DNA of 64,000 nucleotides from an uncultured Acidobacteriota bacterium (GTDB lineage: Bacteria; Acidobacteriota; Thermoanaerobaculia; Multivoradales; SZUA-115): assembly GCA_963805975.1 (NCBI GenBank), contig CAWDVR010000003.1:864001-928000 (forward strand). The letters run 5' to 3'. Below, in pieces: positions 31,345 to 41,114 of the stretch. The notes under the pieces are model-generated. The model was not told the origin of the DNA. It saw only the letters and a program-made list of their open reading frames with translations, and searched no databases. A program made the position numbers and the translations under genes. Numbering within the stretch: the stretch's first letter is position 1; the number at the start of each line of letters is the position of its first letter.

Positions 31345-31348
<4 letters not shown>
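30113..31348 (+). CDS. DUF4255/Pvc16(Afp16)-like tail terminator with IPT/TIG-like C-terminal domains
   Basis: VNLYLYQLAENP, PPLSLDLNYLVTAY, LSKIWTAL, SVAYNVSVVQI. Confidence 0.88.
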
Positions 31349-33566
<2,218 letters not shown>

Positions 33567-33570
<4 letters not shown>

Positions 33571-33767
33571 GCACGCCCTTCGAGGACAGCCTCGCCGCGG
33601 CGCTCCGGGCGCGGTTCGGCGCCGGCGAGGCGCTGCGGCGCTTCGCCGACCTGCACCTGGACCAGCTCACGGTCGACCTGCCGGCGGGCACCGACGCGGT
33701 GGATCACGGCGCGCTGGCGGACGCCATCGCCACCGCTCTCGACGACCTGCTGCGGGGTGAAGCATGA
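33567..33767 (+). CDS. Small hypothetical eCIS protein
   Basis: 66 aa ORF overlapping both neighbours by GTGA/ATGA. Confidence 0.6.
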
Positions 33768-35647
33768 GCGCGGTACAACGGCAGAGCGCGGCCAAGCAGG
33801 CGAGCGCGCAGCAGACCGCGCAGGAGCGCCCGCCGGTGCGCGAGGCGGAGCCGGAGGACGCGCTCGGCACCCTCCTCGGCTTGCAAGCGGGCTTCGGCAA
33901 CCAGGCGGTGAAGCGCGCCGGGGACGCCTGCCCCAACCTCGCCGCCTGCCCCACCGGCGGCGCGTGCCACGAGTGCGCTCAGAAGGCGGCGAGCGGGAAT
34001 GGAGTGGAGCACGCCGGGGCGAGTGGTGGCCCGGCCCCTCGTGAGGCCGCCCCCGCCCAGATCCTTCGCTCCGCTCAGGATGACAGTGTCGAGACGGCTT
34101 CCAGCCCCGATGTCATCCCGAGCGCAGCGAGGGATCTGGAGGCTGGGGACACCGCTGCGGCCGAGACCCCGGGCTCCGCTCAGAGCACTGCCTTCCTAGT
34201 CGACGACCCCGCGAGCGCCACCGAGCCGGCCCAGATGTCCAAGGAGCTGTTCCTTTCCGAGCTGCGATCGCAGGTCTCCGTCGCGGCCGAGGAAGAGCTC
34301 GCCGGCACCGGCCGCACGGCCCGCGACTGCCCGTGGATCGAGCACTGGTTCGGCTACTTCGAGCACCGCAGCGCCGAGCGGGTGGAGAGCGCCCTGCGGC
34401 GGTACGCACCGGAGACCACGACGGCCCAAAGCGCCGGTGAGTACATGTCTCCGGTGGTCGAACGGGTGCGGCGGTCCGTGGCGCACTGGGCCGCGACCGG
34501 CGAGGTCACCGGGGTGCCCGCCGAGGGCCTGGCGGCGGGGGCCGCGGGCGCGACGCTCGCGAGCGCCAGCCAGGGCCTCTCGGCCGGGCTGATGTTCAAG
34601 GCGCGCGAAGGCGGCGCCCGCACCCCGCAGGACCTGCACACCCTACAAGCCCGCCTCGGAGAGGGCGAGGCGCTCGACGCCCCCGTGCGCTCGCGCATGG
34701 AGTCGGCCTTCGGGGCGAGCTTCGGCGGCGTGCGCGTGCACCGCGACGCCAACGCCGCGGTGCTCTCTTCCGAGGTCAACGCCCGTGCCTTCGCGCTCGG
34801 CGACCACATCGCCTTCGGCGCCGGCGAGTACCGGCCCGGCAACGTGGTGGGAGATGCGCTCATCGCCCACGAGCTGGCGCACGTGATGCAGCAGCAGGGA
34901 AGCGGCGCGGGCGGCGGGGGGAGCGCCGACTACGGCTCGCTGGAGAAGGATGCGGACCGTGGAGCCGCGGGCGCGGTGGCCTCGCTGTGGGCGGGGGCGC
35001 GCGAGGGCCTAGCGAACCTGGCGGCCAGGACCGGCCCTGCGCTGCGCTCGGGGTTGCGGTTGCAGCGGTGCAACAGCCCGGCTCCCCGTACCGACGGCTG
35101 TGTCACCGGAGATCTGACGGCGAAGACCTCCGGAGCCTTCCAGGGCGGGTGGGATGCCAACAGCTATCTGACGGGAGGAGCTAACTGGGGGGCTGTGGCC
35201 AGTCCCGGAACGGCCGGCCGAGACGGGCGCGGATACAAAGTTCAGACCACGGCTCCCTACTCGGGTCAGGAGAATCTTGGCGTCGCTCAGACCATGACTC
35301 ACACTGGAGCGAACCAAGCCTTTCTAGATGGCACCGCCGGCTACCTGGGTCTGCCTGCTGGAAGCGTCACGAATGGTACGACTTACAACGAACCAGTGCT
35401 GGATGCCGGTGACCCCTTTGCCGCCAGACCGTGGATCCTTCGCTACCAGGATGGAATCGTGTCCTTCTGTGATGTCCCCAGGGCTGGAGCAGGAGAGCAA
35501 GGCAGCATCGACTTCGTCACCAGCTTCCACTCGAGGGGTGCGCCGTGCTCGAAGCGCTGGTATTCCGTTACCTGGAGGTGGACGATCGACTTCACGCCCG
35601 GCAATGATGTGAATACAGTCACGCAGCAGTCCCAATCGTCCGGCTGA
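33764..35647 (+). CDS. DUF4157 (eCIS core) effector with a variable C-terminal domain
   Basis: LQAGFGNQAV leader, CPTGGACHEC, MESAFGASFGGVRVH...ARAFALG...LIAHELAHVMQQ, then SGLRLQRC and an AT-richer C-terminus. Confidence 0.88.
   Translation: MSAVQRQSAAKQASAQQTAQERPPVREAEPEDALGTLLGLQAGFGNQAVKRAGDACPNLAACPTGGACHECAQKAASGNGVEHAGASGGPAPREAAPAQILRSAQDDSVETASSPDVIPSAARDLEAGDTAAAETPGSAQSTAFLVDDPASATEPAQMSKELFLSELRSQVSVAAEEELAGTGRTARDCPWIEHWFGYFEHRSAERVESALRRYAPETTTAQSAGEYMSPVVERVRRSVAHWAATGEVTGVPAEGLAAGAAGATLASASQGLSAGLMFKAREGGARTPQDLHTLQARLGEGEALDAPVRSRMESAFGASFGGVRVHRDANAAVLSSEVNARAFALGDHIAFGAGEYRPGNVVGDALIAHELAHVMQQQGSGAGGGGSADYGSLEKDADRGAAGAVASLWAGAREGLANLAARTGPALRSGLRLQRCNSPAPRTDGCVTGDLTAKTSGAFQGGWDANSYLTGGANWGAVASPGTAGRDGRGYKVQTTAPYSGQENLGVAQTMTHTGANQAFLDGTAGYLGLPAGSVTNGTTYNEPVLDAGDPFAARPWILRYQDGIVSFCDVPRAGAGEQGSIDFVTSFHSRGAPCSKRWYSVTWRWTIDFTPGNDVNTVTQQSQSSG
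34057..34139. repeat. GTCATCC-type REP doublet inserted in frame in the DUF4157 gene
   Basis: CCAGATCCTTCGCTCCGCTCAGGATGACA ... TGTCATCCCGAGCGCAGCGAGGGATCTGG, encoding QILRSAQDD...VIPSAARDL. Confidence 0.88.
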
Positions 35648-35664
35648 CAGGTGGGAGAGGATTC

Positions 35665-36012
35665 GTGGTGGAGACATCGAAGCGGCTCGAGGGTCTTTTG
35701 CATCGGCTTCGAGAGCTCAAGGTCGAAGGAGTGGGCCGTGGTGGGCCCTTCCTGGGAGTCGTTCACAACGAGGTTACGCGTGAGCTTCTGGCAGAAGGAA
35801 TGGGAATCGTGCCCTTGCTTCTCGAACGGATCGGGAGCAGTGAGCTCGATGAGACGATCTTCCTCGTCTTTCTCCTCCGTGAGCTGCGATCCATCAATGC
35901 TAAGGGTGCAATAGAAAAACTGCTGGATTCCCCTAGATTTCGTGGCAAGCCGCGAGACCTGACGCTCGAGATGCAGGTGCAGTTCTACCTGCGTGATGTG
36001 GACTCGTGGTGA
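35665..36012 (+). CDS. Small helical protein, candidate immunity protein
   Basis: Directly downstream of the effector C-terminus with the same atypical codon usage; GGAGAGG RBS. Confidence 0.6.
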   Translation: MVETSKRLEGLLHRLRELKVEGVGRGGPFLGVVHNEVTRELLAEGMGIVPLLLERIGSSELDETIFLVFLLRELRSINAKGAIEKLLDSPRFRGKPRDLTLEMQVQFYLRDVDSW

Positions 36013-37253
36013 GTCGCTGGACAGCCGAGCGCCGCAGACTGGAGGCGATCAAAATGGAGGCGAGAAGCACACCCTTTCGCGGATCGGCTGTGTGGCTGCA
36101 GGCAAGGGCCTCGAGTGGTCTAAAGCGCTTGGCTCGGCCTGGGCTCCGCTTCGGCTCGCGCTCCATCTCCTCCTTCCACCTCTGCGGCATCGTCGGCTGG
36201 GTCACCGGCATCGCGCTCGCCTGCTTCCTCACCGCGCACCAGGGCCTGCCGCTGTGGGTCACGGGGGTCTTGGCCGTGGGGTCGATCGTCACCTTCCTCG
36301 CCCTGGTGATGGCGATGAAGATCGCCACCGGCGAGGAGAACATCGTCTACTACCACCACGAGATCGCGGTGGTGGCGGTGTCGGCGCTCACGCTGTGGCT
36401 CCTCGGCCAGCCGGTGCTGCCATACCTCGACGCGGTGCTCCTGGGGCTCGGGCTGTTCCTCGCCTGCGGGCGCGTCGGCTGCCTGATGGTGGGCTGCTGC
36501 CACGGGAGGCCGCATTCCTGGGGCGTCTGCTACGGCCACGAGCACGCCGCGGCCGGCTTCACGCCGCACCTGGTGGGCGTGCGGCTCTTCCCCATCCAGC
36601 TCGTCGAATCGGTCTACGTGCTGGCGACAGTCGCGGTGGGCACGGCGATGGTGCTCCGCGGCGCCGCGCCGGGCTCGGCGCTGGCTTTCTACTCGATCGC
36701 CTACGGCCTGGCCCGATTTTCCTTCGAGTTCTTCCGCGGCGACGCAGCGCGGCCCTACCTGCGTGGCTTCTCCGAGGCGCAGTGGACCACGCTGGGTCTC
36801 ATGATCGGCACCGCCGCGGCCGAGCTGGCTGGCTTCCTACCGCTCGCCTGGTGGCACGTGGGCGCCGCCGCGGCGCTGGCCGTGGCGATGGTCTTCGTGG
36901 GCCTGGGCGAGAACCGGCAGCGAGCCCTGTTCCGGGCCCGGCACATGGAACAGCTCGCGGCCCTGGCCCAGGCGGCGAGCCAGGAAGCCGGGGCCGGTGG
37001 CGCGGTGGCGATCGGCCAGACCGAGCTCGGCATCCAGCTCTCGGCGAGCCGCGTGCACGAGGAGGCGGGAGAGCTCGAGGTGCTGGGGTTCTCCTCGCCC
37101 CGTGAGCCCCTGCCGGACCGCGCCACCTCCCGCCTCACGCGGCTGCTCGCCCGGCTGCGGCGCGTGGAGAGGCCGGAGCGGGTCCTGGCCTCGAGCGGTG
37201 GCGTGGTGCACCTCGTCCTGCCGGCGCCGGCCGCCGGAGCGGAGAGCCCGTGA
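36006..37253 (+). CDS. Divergent prolipoprotein diacylglyceryl transferase (Lgt)-like membrane protein with an extra C-terminal domain
   Basis: GRVGCLMVGCCHG, FPIQLVES and YGLARFSFEFFRGD Lgt motifs; about 7 TM helices. The start may be 36054. Confidence 0.82.
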   Translation: MVSRWTAERRRLEAIKMEARSTPFRGSAVWLQARASSGLKRLARPGLRFGSRSISSFHLCGIVGWVTGIALACFLTAHQGLPLWVTGVLAVGSIVTFLALVMAMKIATGEENIVYYHHEIAVVAVSALTLWLLGQPVLPYLDAVLLGLGLFLACGRVGCLMVGCCHGRPHSWGVCYGHEHAAAGFTPHLVGVRLFPIQLVESVYVLATVAVGTAMVLRGAAPGSALAFYSIAYGLARFSFEFFRGDAARPYLRGFSEAQWTTLGLMIGTAAAELAGFLPLAWWHVGAAAALAVAMVFVGLGENRQRALFRARHMEQLAALAQAASQEAGAGGAVAIGQTELGIQLSASRVHEEAGELEVLGFSSPREPLPDRATSRLTRLLARLRRVERPERVLASSGGVVHLVLPAPAAGAESP

Positions 37254-38062
37254 AATCGCGTGCGCTCGACCCCTCGCTCGAGCCCGCCTCGAAGCGCCCC
37301 GAGCCTGCGGTGCCGAGCCGCGCTCCGGTGGAGCCGGAAGGTGCCGAGAAGGCACTGTTCGACGCGGGAGCCATGGGCAACCAGGCATTTCAGCAGCGCA
37401 ATCGGCCGGGGGCCTCGGCTCGCGAGGGTGTGGTGGACATGTCGCCCGCCGCCGGCGGGGCCCCGGCGGCCTCGCCCTCTGCGGCGACCTCGCCGGGACC
37501 GCCTGTCGTCGACGGGATCACAATCGTTGACAGCCCCGCGGGTGCCGTCACCGGGTTCCCTACCATCCTCGGCCGCGCCAGCCACGACGTGCCGGGCCCG
37601 TTCAACGATCAGGCAACCGGCGAGTGCCGGAACTCCCATCAGGTCCACTTCCACCTCGCAAGCGGCAGCTCCGGCAACCTGACGCCGCGGCGCGAGGTGA
37701 AGCGATCAGTGTTCCAGGCTGGGGCCGAGCACAGGAAACCGACCGATCTGCCGGGACAGCCCGGTGGGTTCGGTGGCACGAGGACAGGCCCGGACGGGCC
37801 AGGACCGCACGTCCTGCAACCTTCGGCCGACCTGATCGCCATCGCCGATGCCCCCGGAACACTGGCTCTCACGCCCGCCCAATATCCGTTCGTCTATTCA
37901 GCGGCCTTCACGCTCACGGTGGCCAGCGGCGGGCTCGACATCGCCCGCACCAGGTACTACGTCTTCATCGAGAAGAACAGCGCCACCAGTATCCCCAACG
38001 AAGAGAACACGGTCTTCCCGATCGAGAAGAAAGATCTCATCAACAATAGGGACCTCCCATGA
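37250..38062 (+). CDS. Putative eCIS cargo protein (shared N-terminal leader, no DUF4157)
   Basis: First ~50 aa nearly colinear with the next gene (EPAVPSR...AGAMGNQAFQ). Confidence 0.7.
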   Translation: MKSRALDPSLEPASKRPEPAVPSRAPVEPEGAEKALFDAGAMGNQAFQQRNRPGASAREGVVDMSPAAGGAPAASPSAATSPGPPVVDGITIVDSPAGAVTGFPTILGRASHDVPGPFNDQATGECRNSHQVHFHLASGSSGNLTPRREVKRSVFQAGAEHRKPTDLPGQPGGFGGTRTGPDGPGPHVLQPSADLIAIADAPGTLALTPAQYPFVYSAAFTLTVASGGLDIARTRYYVFIEKNSATSIPNEENTVFPIEKKDLINNRDLP

Positions 38063-38087
38063 CGCTCGCCCAAATCCGTTTCCACTC

Positions 38088-39317
38088 ATGAAATCCCAAT
38101 CGTCGGACACCTCGCGCGAGCCCGCCGCGAAACGCTCCGAGCCTGCCGTGCCGAGCCGCGTCCCGGCGCAAGCCGGGGGCCCGGACAAGGCGCTGAACGA
38201 GGCCGGCGCGATGGGCAACCAGGCGTTCCAGCGGCGCGGGCGAGCCTCCAAGGAAGCCGGGGGATCAGCCTCAGCCGCCGCCGAGCCGGCGCCGGCACCG
38301 CTGACGCGGGACGATCCGGAGGCGATCCTCGCCCGGCTGGGCGAGGGCAAGCCGCTCGACTCCGAGGCCCGCCGCCGGATGGAGGCGGTCTTCGGTGAGG
38401 ACTTCTCCGGCGTGCGCCTGCACGACGACGCCACCGCCGCGCTCCTGGCCTCGGACTTCGACGCCCGCGCCTTCACCGTCGGCGAGCACGTGGCCCTGGG
38501 CGGTGGTGGGCTCGAGCCCGGTACCGCGGTGGGCGATGCCGTGCTGGCCCACGAGCTGGCGCACGTGCTGCAGCAGCGCGGGGGGGCCCCCGGCGCGGAG
38601 AAGGAGGACGCGGCTGGCAGCAGTTTCCTCGAACGTGACGCCGATCAGGCCGCGGCGTCGGCCACGGCCTCCCTCTGGACGGGCGCCCAGGGTGCCGGCA
38701 CCGGCATCACCCCGGTGGACAAGCCGAGCGGACGGTCCGGGCTGCGCCTGTCACGCTGCGATGGTGGCAAACCGAAGCCGGCCCCGCCGGCCAAGAAGTC
38801 GGTGACCGTGAAGCGCTCCAAGCTGCATGGCAGCACCTACGACATCGACTCGGGGTTCGACTACGCCAACACCAAGGTCTACAACCAGGTGAACGTGGAG
38901 GTGAAGAAGGGGAAGGAGGAGAACCTCGACGAGGCGAAGACGACACCCATCCTCGGCGACGACCTGATCCTCGAAGAGTTCAGCGACCCCAAGGCGCCGA
39001 CCGAAGAGGAGAAGAAGCTGTTCAAGGTCAACCAGGCCACGGACGAGATCACCGCCTACTTCGTCAAGGGCCTCTCCGCCGGCAGCACCGGCGAGCAGTT
39101 CCGACCGGCCCACGGCCACAGCTTCGTCGGACTGGTGGTGAGCAACGACGGCAACGACCCGACCTTCGCTCACGAGCTCGGCCACATCCTGCTCGACGAC
39201 GGCGGGCACGACGTGCCGGACGACACCTACCTGATGTTCGGCTCCAAGACCGCCGGCAAGCACAAGCTCACCGAGGATCAGAAGACCAAGATCCTGGCGA
39301 GCAAGTTCGTGAAGTGA
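38088..39317 (+). CDS. DUF4157 effector with a C-terminal zinc metallopeptidase (metzincin-like) domain
   Basis: DUF4157 (MEAVFGEDFSGVRLH...LAHELAHVLQQ), SGLRLSRC, then AHELGHILLDDGGH...YLM. Confidence 0.85.
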   Translation: MKSQSSDTSREPAAKRSEPAVPSRVPAQAGGPDKALNEAGAMGNQAFQRRGRASKEAGGSASAAAEPAPAPLTRDDPEAILARLGEGKPLDSEARRRMEAVFGEDFSGVRLHDDATAALLASDFDARAFTVGEHVALGGGGLEPGTAVGDAVLAHELAHVLQQRGGAPGAEKEDAAGSSFLERDADQAAASATASLWTGAQGAGTGITPVDKPSGRSGLRLSRCDGGKPKPAPPAKKSVTVKRSKLHGSTYDIDSGFDYANTKVYNQVNVEVKKGKEENLDEAKTTPILGDDLILEEFSDPKAPTEEEKKLFKVNQATDEITAYFVKGLSAGSTGEQFRPAHGHSFVGLVVSNDGNDPTFAHELGHILLDDGGHDVPDDTYLMFGSKTAGKHKLTEDQKTKILASKFVK

Positions 39318-39330
39318 GGGCGAGAAGAGA

Positions 39331-40228
39331 ATGGTGACCCCGGCCCCCGGCTCGCTGCAACTCGCCCTGTCCGTGGATCGCGAGTCCTTCTCCATCGGCC
39401 AGGCGGTGCGGCCGCGGCTGGTGATCCGCAACACGCACGGGCGAGCGCGTGAGCTTCCCGTCGTTCATCTTCTCGGAGGAGAAGCTGGCGTTCGCGGCGC
39501 CTGGTGGGCCCCACCTGCTAGCACCGGATGGCCGCGACCTGCTGGCTCCGTACCGGCTCACCGCCGCGGTGGCACCGGGGCTCGGTATCGAGGTCGAGCC
39601 CGGGAGGGACGAGCACCGCATCCTGCCCCTCTCACGGTTCGCCGACCTGCGACGGCCCGGCCGGTACCGCTTCTGGCTCGAGCTCCAAGACCATGCGGGG
39701 CGGCTCCACGAGAGCAACAGGGTCCCCTTCGAGATCACCGAGGTCGAGTCGGTGGCGCCAGCCGGGCCGATCGTTCTGAGCCTTCACCTCCCGTCCCCTG
39801 CTCCGGCCCCGTACCCCGTCGAGGCCGAGGTGCGCTTCGAGAACCTGTCGCCGGAACCCGTCGTGATCCTGCGCCCGCAGGAGGACTCGTTCGACGGCTG
39901 GGTCAACCCGGCCTATCTCTTCACCGTGACGGACGGGCAGGGCCGGCTGCTGCCCCCGGCCCCCAGAACCGGCTCGATGGCCGAGCCGGTCTATGACGAG
40001 GACGCGTTTCTCCATCTTCCCCCCGGCGGGTCCGCGCTTCTCGATCTCCGCCTGCCTCTGCTTCCCGACCTTTCCGCCGCCGGGCCGGTTCGGGTTCGGC
40101 TGGACTACATCGTCCGCCAGCACGCCGTGGGCAAACTCGGCGTGCTCCTGGAGCGGCGGGTGATCTGGCCCCGCAACACCTTCGTCGGCAGGCTGGAATC
40201 CAACGAGGCTTCCCTTGCGCTCGGCTGA
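39331..40228 (+). pseudogene. Two-domain Ig-like protein, candidate peptidase inhibitor/immunity; apparent frameshift near 39445
   Basis: LQLALSVDRESFSIGQAVRPRLVIRN lies in one frame and the remainder (…PGRYRFW…ESN; …VRFEN…LESN) in another. Confidence 0.55.
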
Positions 40229-41114
40229 GCGGCCTCCCGGGCCCGGAGTGTTGTCACCGGAACAATCCACCACCGCCCACGTCCGCGCCAGCCGGGCCCT
40301 GATCGCCCGCGCGGCAGCGCTGGCGCCGGCCGGCTTCGCCGCCGTGCTGGGAAGCGGCGCGGCGACCGAGATCCCCATCGCCGAGCTGGCCGACCATTTC
40401 GACGCGGTGGAGCTCGTCGACTGCGACGGCGCCGCGCTCGCCAGGGCCCGGCAGCGATACGGGCGCTCGGGCCAGCTCCGACGCTCGCTCTGGTTCACCG
40501 AGGCCGATCTGACCGGCACGATCCGCGCAGCGCGGTCAGCCAGCCAGGAGATCGTGGCCCGGGCCACCGGCCCCGGCGCCTGTCTGGAGGAGCTCGTCGA
40601 CCTCCTGGACCGGACCCGGCCGAGCTTTTTCCGGCCAGGCAACGGGCAGGGCTGTGCGCTGGTGGTCTGCTCCGGAGTCCTCAGCCAGCTCCAGTCCGGT
40701 GTCCGCCGGGCCGTCCGCGAGCCGTTCGTAGAGCGCTTCGCCGACGCCGGTGCGACGGAGGCTCAGTGCCAGCCGTGGAAGCGGGCCTGGTGGCGGCTCG
40801 CGCGCCGCCTAGAGAGCTCGTTTCTCGACCACGTGGCGGCCCTGCTCCAGCCGGGGGGCGTGCTGTACCTCGCAGACACCGTTCACGCCTGCTGGCTGGA
40901 GGAGGTCGAGCCCGGCACGCTCGGCAGTACCGGTGCATGGCTCGCGTTGCGCTCGCCGCGCCTCGCGGACTATGTCCACGAAGACTGCGAGGTTCTCGTG
41001 GAGCGTGGCTGGCCCTGGTACCGACTCGGGCGCGACGGTGCCTACCTGGGCCGGCTCTACGGCGTCCAGGCCCTGATCTGCCGCCCTGCCCGCCGATCTC
41101 CGGCCTCCGGGTAA
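40215..41114 (+). CDS. Class I SAM-dependent methyltransferase-like protein
   Basis: AVLGSG...EIP, VELVDCD, EADLTG, SGVLSQL, LQPGGVLYLAD. Confidence 0.72.
   Translation: MRSAERPPGPGVLSPEQSTTAHVRASRALIARAAALAPAGFAAVLGSGAATEIPIAELADHFDAVELVDCDGAALARARQRYGRSGQLRRSLWFTEADLTGTIRAARSASQEIVARATGPGACLEELVDLLDRTRPSFFRPGNGQGCALVVCSGVLSQLQSGVRRAVREPFVERFADAGATEAQCQPWKRAWWRLARRLESSFLDHVAALLQPGGVLYLADTVHACWLEEVEPGTLGSTGAWLALRSPRLADYVHEDCEVLVERGWPWYRLGRDGAYLGRLYGVQALICRPARRSPASG

Follow-up and report, generated by a model that had tools for sequence, protein, structure and literature searches.

Ordinary prolipoprotein diacylglyceryl transferase (Lgt) exposes its N-terminus, arms, head and active-site opening to the periplasm and acts on substrates that carry signal peptides (PMC8048626, PMC4728403; here and below, cited statements refer to those parts of each source that were accessible to us). 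Cargo proteins of extracellular contractile injection systems (eCIS), such as Cgo1 and Cgo2 of AlgoCIS and the eCIS-associated toxins (EATs), have a disordered N-terminus, a HExxH domain and a variable toxin-like tail, and have an ATPase gene as neighbor (PMC8213781, PMC11297309). The two subjects meet in a 64,000-nucleotide stretch of contig CAWDVR010000003.1 (assembly GCA_963805975.1) from an uncultured Acidobacteriota bacterium, which we call the window; all features below are given in window positions and lie on the + strand. There, within an eCIS operon, an Lgt paralogue (36054..37253) is encoded between two genes (33764..35647 and 38088..39317) of a cargo class that shares the organization of Cgo1, Cgo2 and the EATs but adds to it an X domain, an extended helix and an invariant cysteine, and which we call Cys-class cargo. 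We propose that this dedicated Lgt, inverted in the membrane, probably adds diacylglycerol from phosphatidylglycerol to the invariant Cys of its partner DUF4157 injection cargo. The initial annotation of the window had suggested that the paralogue lipidates this Cys, and our analysis of sequences and structure models supports that interpretation; what it had missed was the obstacle that Lgt is periplasmic and has signal-peptide substrates, which the predicted inversion would resolve.

The Lgt motifs claimed for the product of 36006-37253 are present, and the protein matches the Pfam LGT family (PF01790; E 4.7e-17, 62.6 bits against a cut-off of 24.9). The database calls its start at ATG 36054, giving 399 aa; a GTG at 36006 would give 415 aa. 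An AlphaFold2 model (mean predicted local distance difference test score, pLDDT, 92.9) matched E. coli Lgt (5azc) with a Z of 16.6 and a root-mean-square deviation (rmsd) of 3.7 over 232 aligned residues, the next match having a Z of 6.6, and Foldseek paired the protein with 5azb (E 2e-4). The link to Lgt rests on Pfam and fold because searching the solved structures by sequence, with the alignment of paralogues as query, gave no match. The family comprises about 1,000 proteins (997 matches among 7,999 scored candidates in a protein search), the best 120 of which are 42-81% identical to the window protein, query aside; the closest named relative of the gene is a Thermoanaerobaculia record with 80% identity, and a search of phage records gave two partial matches only. 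This Lgt-fold family is real, widespread and a clade of its own. In a quick, unrooted maximum-likelihood tree, for which columns were kept mainly where paralogues filled them and nine stray paralogues were left out, a long branch separates 32 paralogues, drawn from about ten phyla, from the 42 other Lgts, with a support of 100 in the SH-like approximate likelihood ratio test (SH-aLRT). Taxa are mixed within the paralogue branch, as expected under horizontal transfer. The paralogue is not the housekeeping gene, because genomes that carry it have a separate ordinary Lgt: the source genome (5.36 Mb, 96% complete) has one elsewhere, and a second, ordinary Lgt was present in 4/5 and 7/7 other paralogue-bearing genomes checked. 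The window protein also fell far below the NCBIfam cut-offs for the housekeeping equivalog (TIGR00544/NF000778; 68.7 of 334 bits and 25.2 of 118.9), and in place of the housekeeping features Y26, H103-G-G-L, N146 and arm-2 it has F, Y-H-H-E, C and a deletion. A further candidate, in genome G643, was rejected as a paralogue by eye, being an ordinary Lgt downstream of a signal-peptidase-II-like gene.

Which parts of Lgt have been kept and which remodeled? Counted over 80 paralogue relatives aligned to E. coli Lgt (residues in E. coli numbers unless stated), the lipid-donor side is kept, with R143, G145, G154, R239 and R246 in all 80, Y235, E243 and E202 in 79 and D129 in 76; each member of the catalytic and lipid-binding set (R143, G142/G145/G154, Y235, R239, E243, R246) is found in 78-80. 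Lgt is proposed to recognize its peptide substrate through the HGGL region and arm-2 (PMC4728403, PMC13251419). That both are remodeled, G104-G105-L106 being mostly H-H-E, while the donor residues are kept, fits a retained chemistry with a new acceptor. N146 and E151 are replaced by Cys, and at the signature motif three cysteines (C143, C148 and C149 in paralogue numbers, 80/80) and two histidines (H150, 74/80; H164, 75/80) are near-invariant. The YYHHE described earlier in place of HGG does align with E. coli F102-H103-G-G-L106 but is not invariant (in paralogue numbers, H101 64/80, H102 64/80, E103 53/80), and as it varies among paralogues we rejected it as a catalytic signature. The extra C-terminal domain of the initial annotation (alpha/beta, 110 aa, 36906..37250) is also present, with a correction: in the model it follows an additional, eighth hydrophobic helix (mean Kyte-Doolittle hydropathy, KD, 1.87) and hence lies on the active-site side, where it is a candidate for docking cargo. 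With the whole-protein model, its best fold match was the PscP switch domain (Z 6.5, not decisive) and the Foldseek matches to type III secretion chaperones of the CesT/SycE type were non-significant (E 1.6-1.9); an Atlas search with the domain gave no usable match.

The cargo would be out of reach of a canonical Lgt, because by eye we saw no signal peptide on it and found no membrane-spanning stretch before the Cys. We therefore consider the orientation of the paralogue in some detail. Lys and Arg were counted in the loops on each side of the membrane, with helix limits taken from the model and the alignment. Ordinary Lgts have a mean of 5.7 such residues on the active-site side and 13.4 on the far side, the direction being the same in 42/42, whereas the paralogues have 15.2 and 2.8, respectively (81/81); the window protein has 15 and 1, and the ordinary Lgt of the same genome 8 and 13. 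When the count was confined to the N-terminal flank and the six shared loops and made under nine settings, the paralogues were reversed in 81/81 every time, while 34-41 of the 42 ordinary Lgts kept the normal direction and 0-5 were reversed. Copies from other loci were reversed in 11/11. By the positive-inside rule, Lys/Arg-rich loops face the cytoplasm. The reversed bias thus indicates that the paralogue faces the cytoplasm, and it departs from the periplasmic N-terminus and active site of a housekeeping Lgt; judged by this bias, the paralogue is very likely inverted, with a cytoplasmic active site. Given the predicted inversion, the lack of a signal peptide on the cargo is no longer an objection.

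Two DUF4157 proteins had been annotated beside the paralogue, and both genes match Pfam eCIS_core/DUF4157 (PF13699), with HExxH, a variable C-terminal domain and an eCIS locus around them. Cargo 1 (33764..35647) comprises a disordered N-terminus, a helical X domain of about 110 aa (34190..34531; LIVED..GQM..CPY..YAP..TGE) that marks the Cys class, a zinc-peptidase-like DUF4157 domain (34673..34903) in which the HExxH and, likewise, a downstream Glu are invariant, the motif SGLRLQRC (35048..35071) and a 192-aa variable tail. Cargo 2 (38088..39317), which probably starts at ATG 38088, has no X domain; its DUF4157 domain (38352-38585) is followed by SGLRLSRC (38736..38759) and a 186-aa tail with a second HExxH. 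Both motifs lie where they had been placed, with Cys codons TGC at 35069-35071, encoding residue 436 of 627, and at 38757-38759; this Cys is the predicted lipid acceptor. Over the best 80 of 201 confirmed GTDB paralogue loci, several of whose non-matches are contigs of 2-10 kb, the motif G-L-x-L-x-x-C occurs in 110/173 DUF4157 domains spread over 66 of the 69 loci with DUF4157, ending in LQRC in 72 of the 110, in LSRC in 10 and in the lipobox-like LQGC, LQSC, LQAC or LSGC in 11. Because this count presupposed the Cys, we also ran an open-ended metagenome scan with a DNA pattern that stopped at G-L-x-L and left the last three residues free, which samples the fixed-spacing core of the class only. 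Cys stood at the third open position in 113 of 114 distinct matches among those listed, in which the two residues before it vary (QR 72, SR 28, QG 4, others 9).

Gly/Ser make up 35% and hydrophobic residues 12% of the first three positions after the Cys, compared with 13% and 28% where a plain QR motif comes before them, and Gly/Ser-rich residues after the Cys are typical of lipoprotein tethers. The X domain, which is undescribed, stands before DUF4157 in 91 of 109 Cys-class proteins and in 1 of 42 others, that one truncated at a locus edge; its block is modeled with a pLDDT of 84-98 and has a conserved Cys of its own (CPY), it matched no Pfam family, its Atlas matches stayed below 0.9, and it is missing from window cargo 2 and from Bacteroidota variants. 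DUF4157 shows no variation in its zinc ligands or catalytic Glu, and the structure closest to it in fold is that of the VgrG2b peptidase (6h56; Z 8.5, rmsd 4.3, 126 aligned). The AVGAVVSLW helix was rejected as a transmembrane segment, its hydrophobicity being too weak; it bears an invariant Glu that is probably the third zinc ligand. Tails are polymorphic: 21 of 111 match Pfam, among them transglutaminase-like, metallopeptidase, peptidoglycan-related, nuclease and deaminase types. Many Cys-class proteins have two DUF4157 domains (L019, L054, L044, L031, L027, L022), the first ending in a plain QR motif that is followed by the X domain. Bacteroidota cargo (L058, L069, L075, L077) ends in L-x-x-R-[R/S/M]-C without an X domain, and the supported subclade formed by the L058, L069 and L077 paralogues hints at co-evolution.

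How closely are the paralogue and the Cys class linked? As the initial annotation had predicted, homologues of the paralogue mostly have DUF4157 or eCIS genes near them, DUF4157 being present at 69/80 loci and either kind at 74/80; the eCIS core genes of the window were matched at 49/80, some by the ATPase alone. An unbiased comparison came from four genome samples drawn by taxonomy, with the centre genomes left out of the counts. Among 300 genomes of the window's own phylum, DUF4157 occurred in 21, and the Cys class and the paralogue occurred together in the same 2; a further 150 drawn from its own class, a sample that overlaps the former, added 11 DUF4157 genomes and one double positive (G660), and there one ordinary Lgt also crossed the threshold. 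Of 250 Chloroflexota genomes 41 had DUF4157 and none had the Cys class or the paralogue, while in 250 Myxococcota DUF4157 occurred in 79 (29 weak matches lie outside those listed) and the Cys class and paralogue in an identical 4. Pooled, the drawn genomes gave 7 with both, 0 discordant and 145 with DUF4157 alone, related genomes among them not being independent and one of the 145 (G024) being an unpublished genome. The class of most of the 145 was judged by profile coverage, which divergent members such as that in G836 may not reach in full, and sequences were read for 51 domains and about 20 more. The Cys motif was absent from all 51 DUF4157 domains read from paralogue-free genomes, which upholds the tie between Cys and paralogue proposed earlier; other Cys near the QR motif there were LLQC in 5 domains, QRAC in 2, QRHC in 1 and VAQC in 1. 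The link also holds at a distance: of 6 genomes in which the paralogue has no adjoining cargo, 5 (G305, G680-G682, G684) encode Cys-class cargo at another site, and a divergent paralogue on a Rhodococcus plasmid, detected by protein similarity only, adjoins genes for sheath, tube and DUF4255, while a cargo ending in GLRLQGC lies about 9 kb off. Carriers that can be cultured include Calothrix sp. NIES-4105 (L014) and Rhodococcus opacus strain 9, on a plasmid (L338). In metagenomes the paralogue was found at at least 44 of 123 Cys-motif loci, of which 47 are of 719 bases or less and a few are duplicates.

Several observations on DUF4157 genes stand beside these counts. The source genome has four further DUF4157 genes (G000:C1:445406, C2:474417, C5:409051, C6:159001), all without the Cys motif; they share a post-HExxH segment, GRVRNxxGxGxxVxQDP, that is unlike the Cys class. 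LLQC-YRV ends a Chloroflexota DUF4157 family without paralogue (L139, L143, L144, L145, L147), a different Cys context. The Myxococcota genome G834 has about ten Cys-class cargo genes on separate contigs (L350, L362, L378-L380) and a single paralogue.

Alongside the fold, separate clade, tight co-occurrence, invariant Cys and reversed charge bias that we observe, we think it highly probable that the paralogue catalyzes transfer of a lipid of some kind onto the motif Cys, with a thioether diacylglyceryl as the likely product. The flipped enzyme would draw diacylglycerol from inner-leaflet phosphatidylglycerol and attach it to the cargo Cys in the cytoplasm, the basic R-S-G-L-R-L-Q-R stretch, rather than a signal peptide, bringing the Cys to the anionic membrane surface. 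The DUF4157 peptidase of the cargo itself might then cut just before the Cys, taking the part of Lsp, and the released toxin tail would be a ready-made lipoprotein able to anchor in the target membrane. Such self-cleavage, with release of a lipoprotein-like tail, is the least certain step, and we give it somewhat less than an even chance; a complete inside-out lipoprotein maturation, with a flipped Lgt, an X domain that serves either as a shield for the lipid or as a dock for the enzyme, and DUF4157 in the place of signal peptidase II, seems to us doubtful. As another fate, the lipid may stage or sequester cargo within the producer, holding it at the inner membrane face until the AAA+ ATPase loads it. 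By analogy with Cgo1 and Cgo2, the Cys-class cargo would be loaded into the tube and injected (PMC8894135). A complex of enzyme and the DUF4157-to-Cys segment, as the initial annotation had envisaged, was predicted with weak support: the score was 0.41, against 0.00 for the best of 3 controls, with runs agreeing in at least 25% of contacts and a partner pLDDT of at least 36. The mark used was reached by 116 of 157 solved and 2 of 215 mismatched pairs, and at scores of 0.60 or below by 18 solved pairs and both mismatches. The VgrG2b peptidase, nearest in fold to DUF4157, depletes lipoproteins from membranes (PMC6899460). The alternative raised earlier, that particles are tethered to the membrane, found no support in this analysis.

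A number of observations weigh against our proposal and must be set beside it. In the enzyme, Y26 is Phe in 71/80 paralogues and H103 is Tyr in 74/80, and either change abolishes the activity of E. coli Lgt (PMC4728403); G104/G105/L106, R73, H196 and arm-2 are lost as well. The objection from Y26 and H103 is softened, as the source genome's own ordinary Lgt carries both changes, and Y26F, H103Y and N146C are all seen among ordinary Lgts; Tyr at 103 is natural in Firmicutes, and Cys at 146 or 151 is a natural variant too (PMC13251419). The cargo does not resemble a prolipoprotein, having no N-terminal signal peptide with an h-region and lipobox [LV][ASTVI][GAS]C: its motif has Arg at -1 in 94/110, and the helix upstream of the Cys is only weakly hydrophobic (best 15-residue KD mean 0.9) and cannot span a membrane. 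Tails of nuclease or deaminase type gain no obvious use from a membrane anchor, and a third cargo-like protein of the window (37250-38062) has a Cys-class tail but no Cys. The pairing also has exceptions. Genome G683 has the paralogue, and Cys-class cargo was not found in it; the three Cys-class genes of the complete eCIS operon L197/L198 have no paralogue within about 22 kb; and of the 19 metagenome loci flanked by 3 kb or more on each side, 14 have the paralogue and 5 lack it among the matches listed (6/8 have it where each side is at least 5 kb). As to self-cleavage by DUF4157, we found no report in the accessible literature, Cgo1 toxicity is independent of its HExxH motifs (PMC8894135), and DUF4157 is dispensable for loading and for Cgo1 toxicity (10.64898/2026.05.27.728243, PMC8894135). 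Finally, two of nine stray Lgt paralogues that were not chosen for eCIS are also reversed, so inversion is not unique to the clade, and inverted Lgt copies in general may do other lipid chemistry. These two (L343:777-2838 in G683:C24 and L342:1839-3890 in G279:C1) are an observation in their own right: one overlaps a phosphatidylserine decarboxylase gene and the other precedes a pyridoxal phosphate (PLP)-dependent enzyme, and they may represent additional families of Lgt-fold enzymes that face the cytoplasm and act in lipid synthesis.

Did the remodeling of the active site alter what is transferred? The same pair and the same inversion could serve another chemistry, by which a phosphatidyl group, one acyl chain in thioester linkage or another lipid is attached to the Cys. 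The changes in the Y26/H103/HGGL region and arm-2, the three Cys and two His at the signature motif and the overlap of an unrelated inverted paralogue with the decarboxylase gene would all suit this idea, but the glycerol- and gate-binding residues of Lgt are all retained and the GCCxG form is also found in an ordinary Lgt of an lspA-lgt operon (L292), and we judge it unlikely. Loss of residues essential in E. coli could equally mean that the paralogue has become a non-catalytic dock or chaperone that binds the motif, perhaps through a disulfide or metal bridge with cysteines of its own, and passes the cargo to the AAA+ ATPase with no lipid involved; the weak likeness of the C-terminal domain to type III secretion chaperones and the PscP switch domain points the same way, as does the weak complex score. 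Near-perfect conservation of the buried catalytic arginines and their network in about ten phyla is, however, hard to explain without catalysis, and most eCIS load DUF4157 cargo with no such dock (145 genomes), which makes this a distinctly unlikely account.

Very improbable, in our view, is that the Cys is structural or a zinc-blocking 'cysteine switch' of DUF4157 and that the paralogue has a separate job or is a co-travelling lineage. The invariant zinc ligands, the placing of the Cys segment without confidence in the model (pLDDT <50), the L197/L198 exception and a co-occurrence inflated by shared descent all leave room for it, whereas the paralogue-cargo link holds in trans and persists in divergent branches (Bacteroidota cargo without X domain, G836, Rhodococcus), and paralogue-free DUF4157 domains have no motif. 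Every characterized Lgt faces the periplasm (PMC8048626, PMC4728403), and the paralogue might do the same, its substrates being cargo or immunity proteins that get to the outer leaflet. Yet in 81/81 sequences that orientation would leave about 15 Lys/Arg on the outside, against about 3 inside, and it would demand export of a 110-aa domain, and by eye a signal peptide is seen on neither enzyme nor cargo; we regard it as barely plausible. Lipidation of the Cys by an inverted Lgt thus remains the explanation that we prefer.

A Pfam scan places the eCIS operon at about 25,800-55,600 of the window, with sheath, gp19 tube, a T4-baseplate-like gene, Pvc16 and AAA+ ATPase, followed by CIS_tube, GPD hub, gp25, Baseplate_J and a DUF6519/beta-helix gene; sheath, tube, Pvc16, AAA+ ATPase, spike hub, gp25 and baseplate J are thus all in a single operon. 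A seven-gene cassette sits between the AAA+ ATPase (31345..33570; Pfam AAA and WHD) and CIS_tube, which confirms the position given to it earlier, ahead of CIS_tube/GPD/gp25/Baseplate_J. Alg15, a relative of this ATPase, has a role in loading cargo into the tube (10.64898/2026.05.27.728243). The Lgt gene had been described as overlapping both neighbors; it does overlap small genes, at 35665-36012 and 37250-38062, and not the DUF4157 genes, and the upstream overlap exists with the GTG start only, not with ATG 36054. The former gene (35665..36012) encodes a 115-aa orphan with no Pfam match and no relative in the loci searched, and from its position alone one might guess at an immunity protein. 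The latter (37250..38062) encodes the 270-aa third cargo-like protein, which has neither DUF4157 nor the Cys motif; its tail matches L031 residues 576-778 (E 8e-46), located there behind a Cys motif. The first 57 residues of cargo 2 nearly copy those of this protein, and the near-identical N-terminus (37250-38062, 38088-38260) holds a GNQA motif, also present in cargo 1, that is a candidate loading signal. Behind cargo 2 lies an accessory gene (39331..40228) that accompanies cargo-2-type tails and is broken across two frames near 39430-39460, through either a genuine lesion or an error of assembly; its counterpart in L009 is a single open frame of 299 aa. The next gene (40215..41114; 299 aa, no Pfam match) recurs at 8 other loci, mostly adjoining cargo-2-type tails. 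By eye its product is presumably methyltransferase-like, and its role may be that of a second modifying enzyme or of an immunity factor.

If these readings hold, the reversal of an entire clade would offer a rare example from nature of a multi-helix enzyme flipped in the membrane for new substrates, and the inversion would be surprising on its own. It would let proteins acquire lipid anchors on the cytoplasmic side, and contractile injection systems would gain a cargo-modification step of which we found no description. A recognizable cargo class is defined across about ten phyla, and the role of DUF4157 becomes directly testable, as the Cys marks the likely cut site. Should the inside-out pathway be true, DUF4157 would gain a function in cutting at its QR motif, and bacteria would have a signal-peptide-free, cytoplasmic diacylglyceryl modification of proteins.

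In the accessible literature we found no description of Lgt with eCIS or DUF4157, of an inverted Lgt or of effector lipidation, although subscription papers and bioRxiv supplements might hold a mention; the accessible parts of PMC8213781, PMC11297309, PMC8894135, PMC11566945, PMC11126660 and PMC12419801 make no mention that we found of an enzyme modifying DUF4157 cargo. In 12 of the 15 supplementary files of the 2021 eCIS survey, LGT is not enriched (odds ratio 0.35, 2 copies; PMC8213781). The system of Lgt paralogue and Cys-class cargo is apparently new to the literature. In its logic it is like HlyC/CyaC, where a toxin is lipidated while still in the cytoplasm, ahead of its export, by a dedicated enzyme encoded with it. 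Those enzymes, the toxin-activating acyltransferases of RTX toxins, are soluble, transfer acyl groups from acyl carrier protein (ACP) onto Lys and serve type I secretion. The paralogue does not belong to the HlyC family, having an eight-helix membrane Lgt fold, a predicted Cys target and a contractile tail. With E. coli Lgt (5azb/5azc; PF01790; TIGR00544) it has in common the fold, G-R-x-G, R239/E243/R246, Y235, D129 and a Cys acceptor with Leu at -3; it differs in its separate clade, scores below NCBIfam cut-offs, deleted arm-2, eighth helix with C-terminal domain and reversed bias, and its predicted substrate differs in that it lacks a signal peptide, has its Cys inside the chain and mostly carries Arg at -1. 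A private lipidating enzyme next to its substrates is likewise found in the Skillet-1 Lipocone system with its serine lipobox, itself a prediction (PMC12419801), and in plasmid-borne second lgt copies (PMC13251419), but these act on lipobox-type or exported substrates, and the accessible parts of both sources report neither inversion nor a link to injection cargo. The C-terminal metallopeptidase of VgrG2b (6h56; PMC6899460), nearest to the DUF4157 fold, also acts near lipoprotein anchors; VgrG2b is itself the toxin and acts on prey lipoproteins, whereas the DUF4157 domain would, by analogy, act on its own chain.

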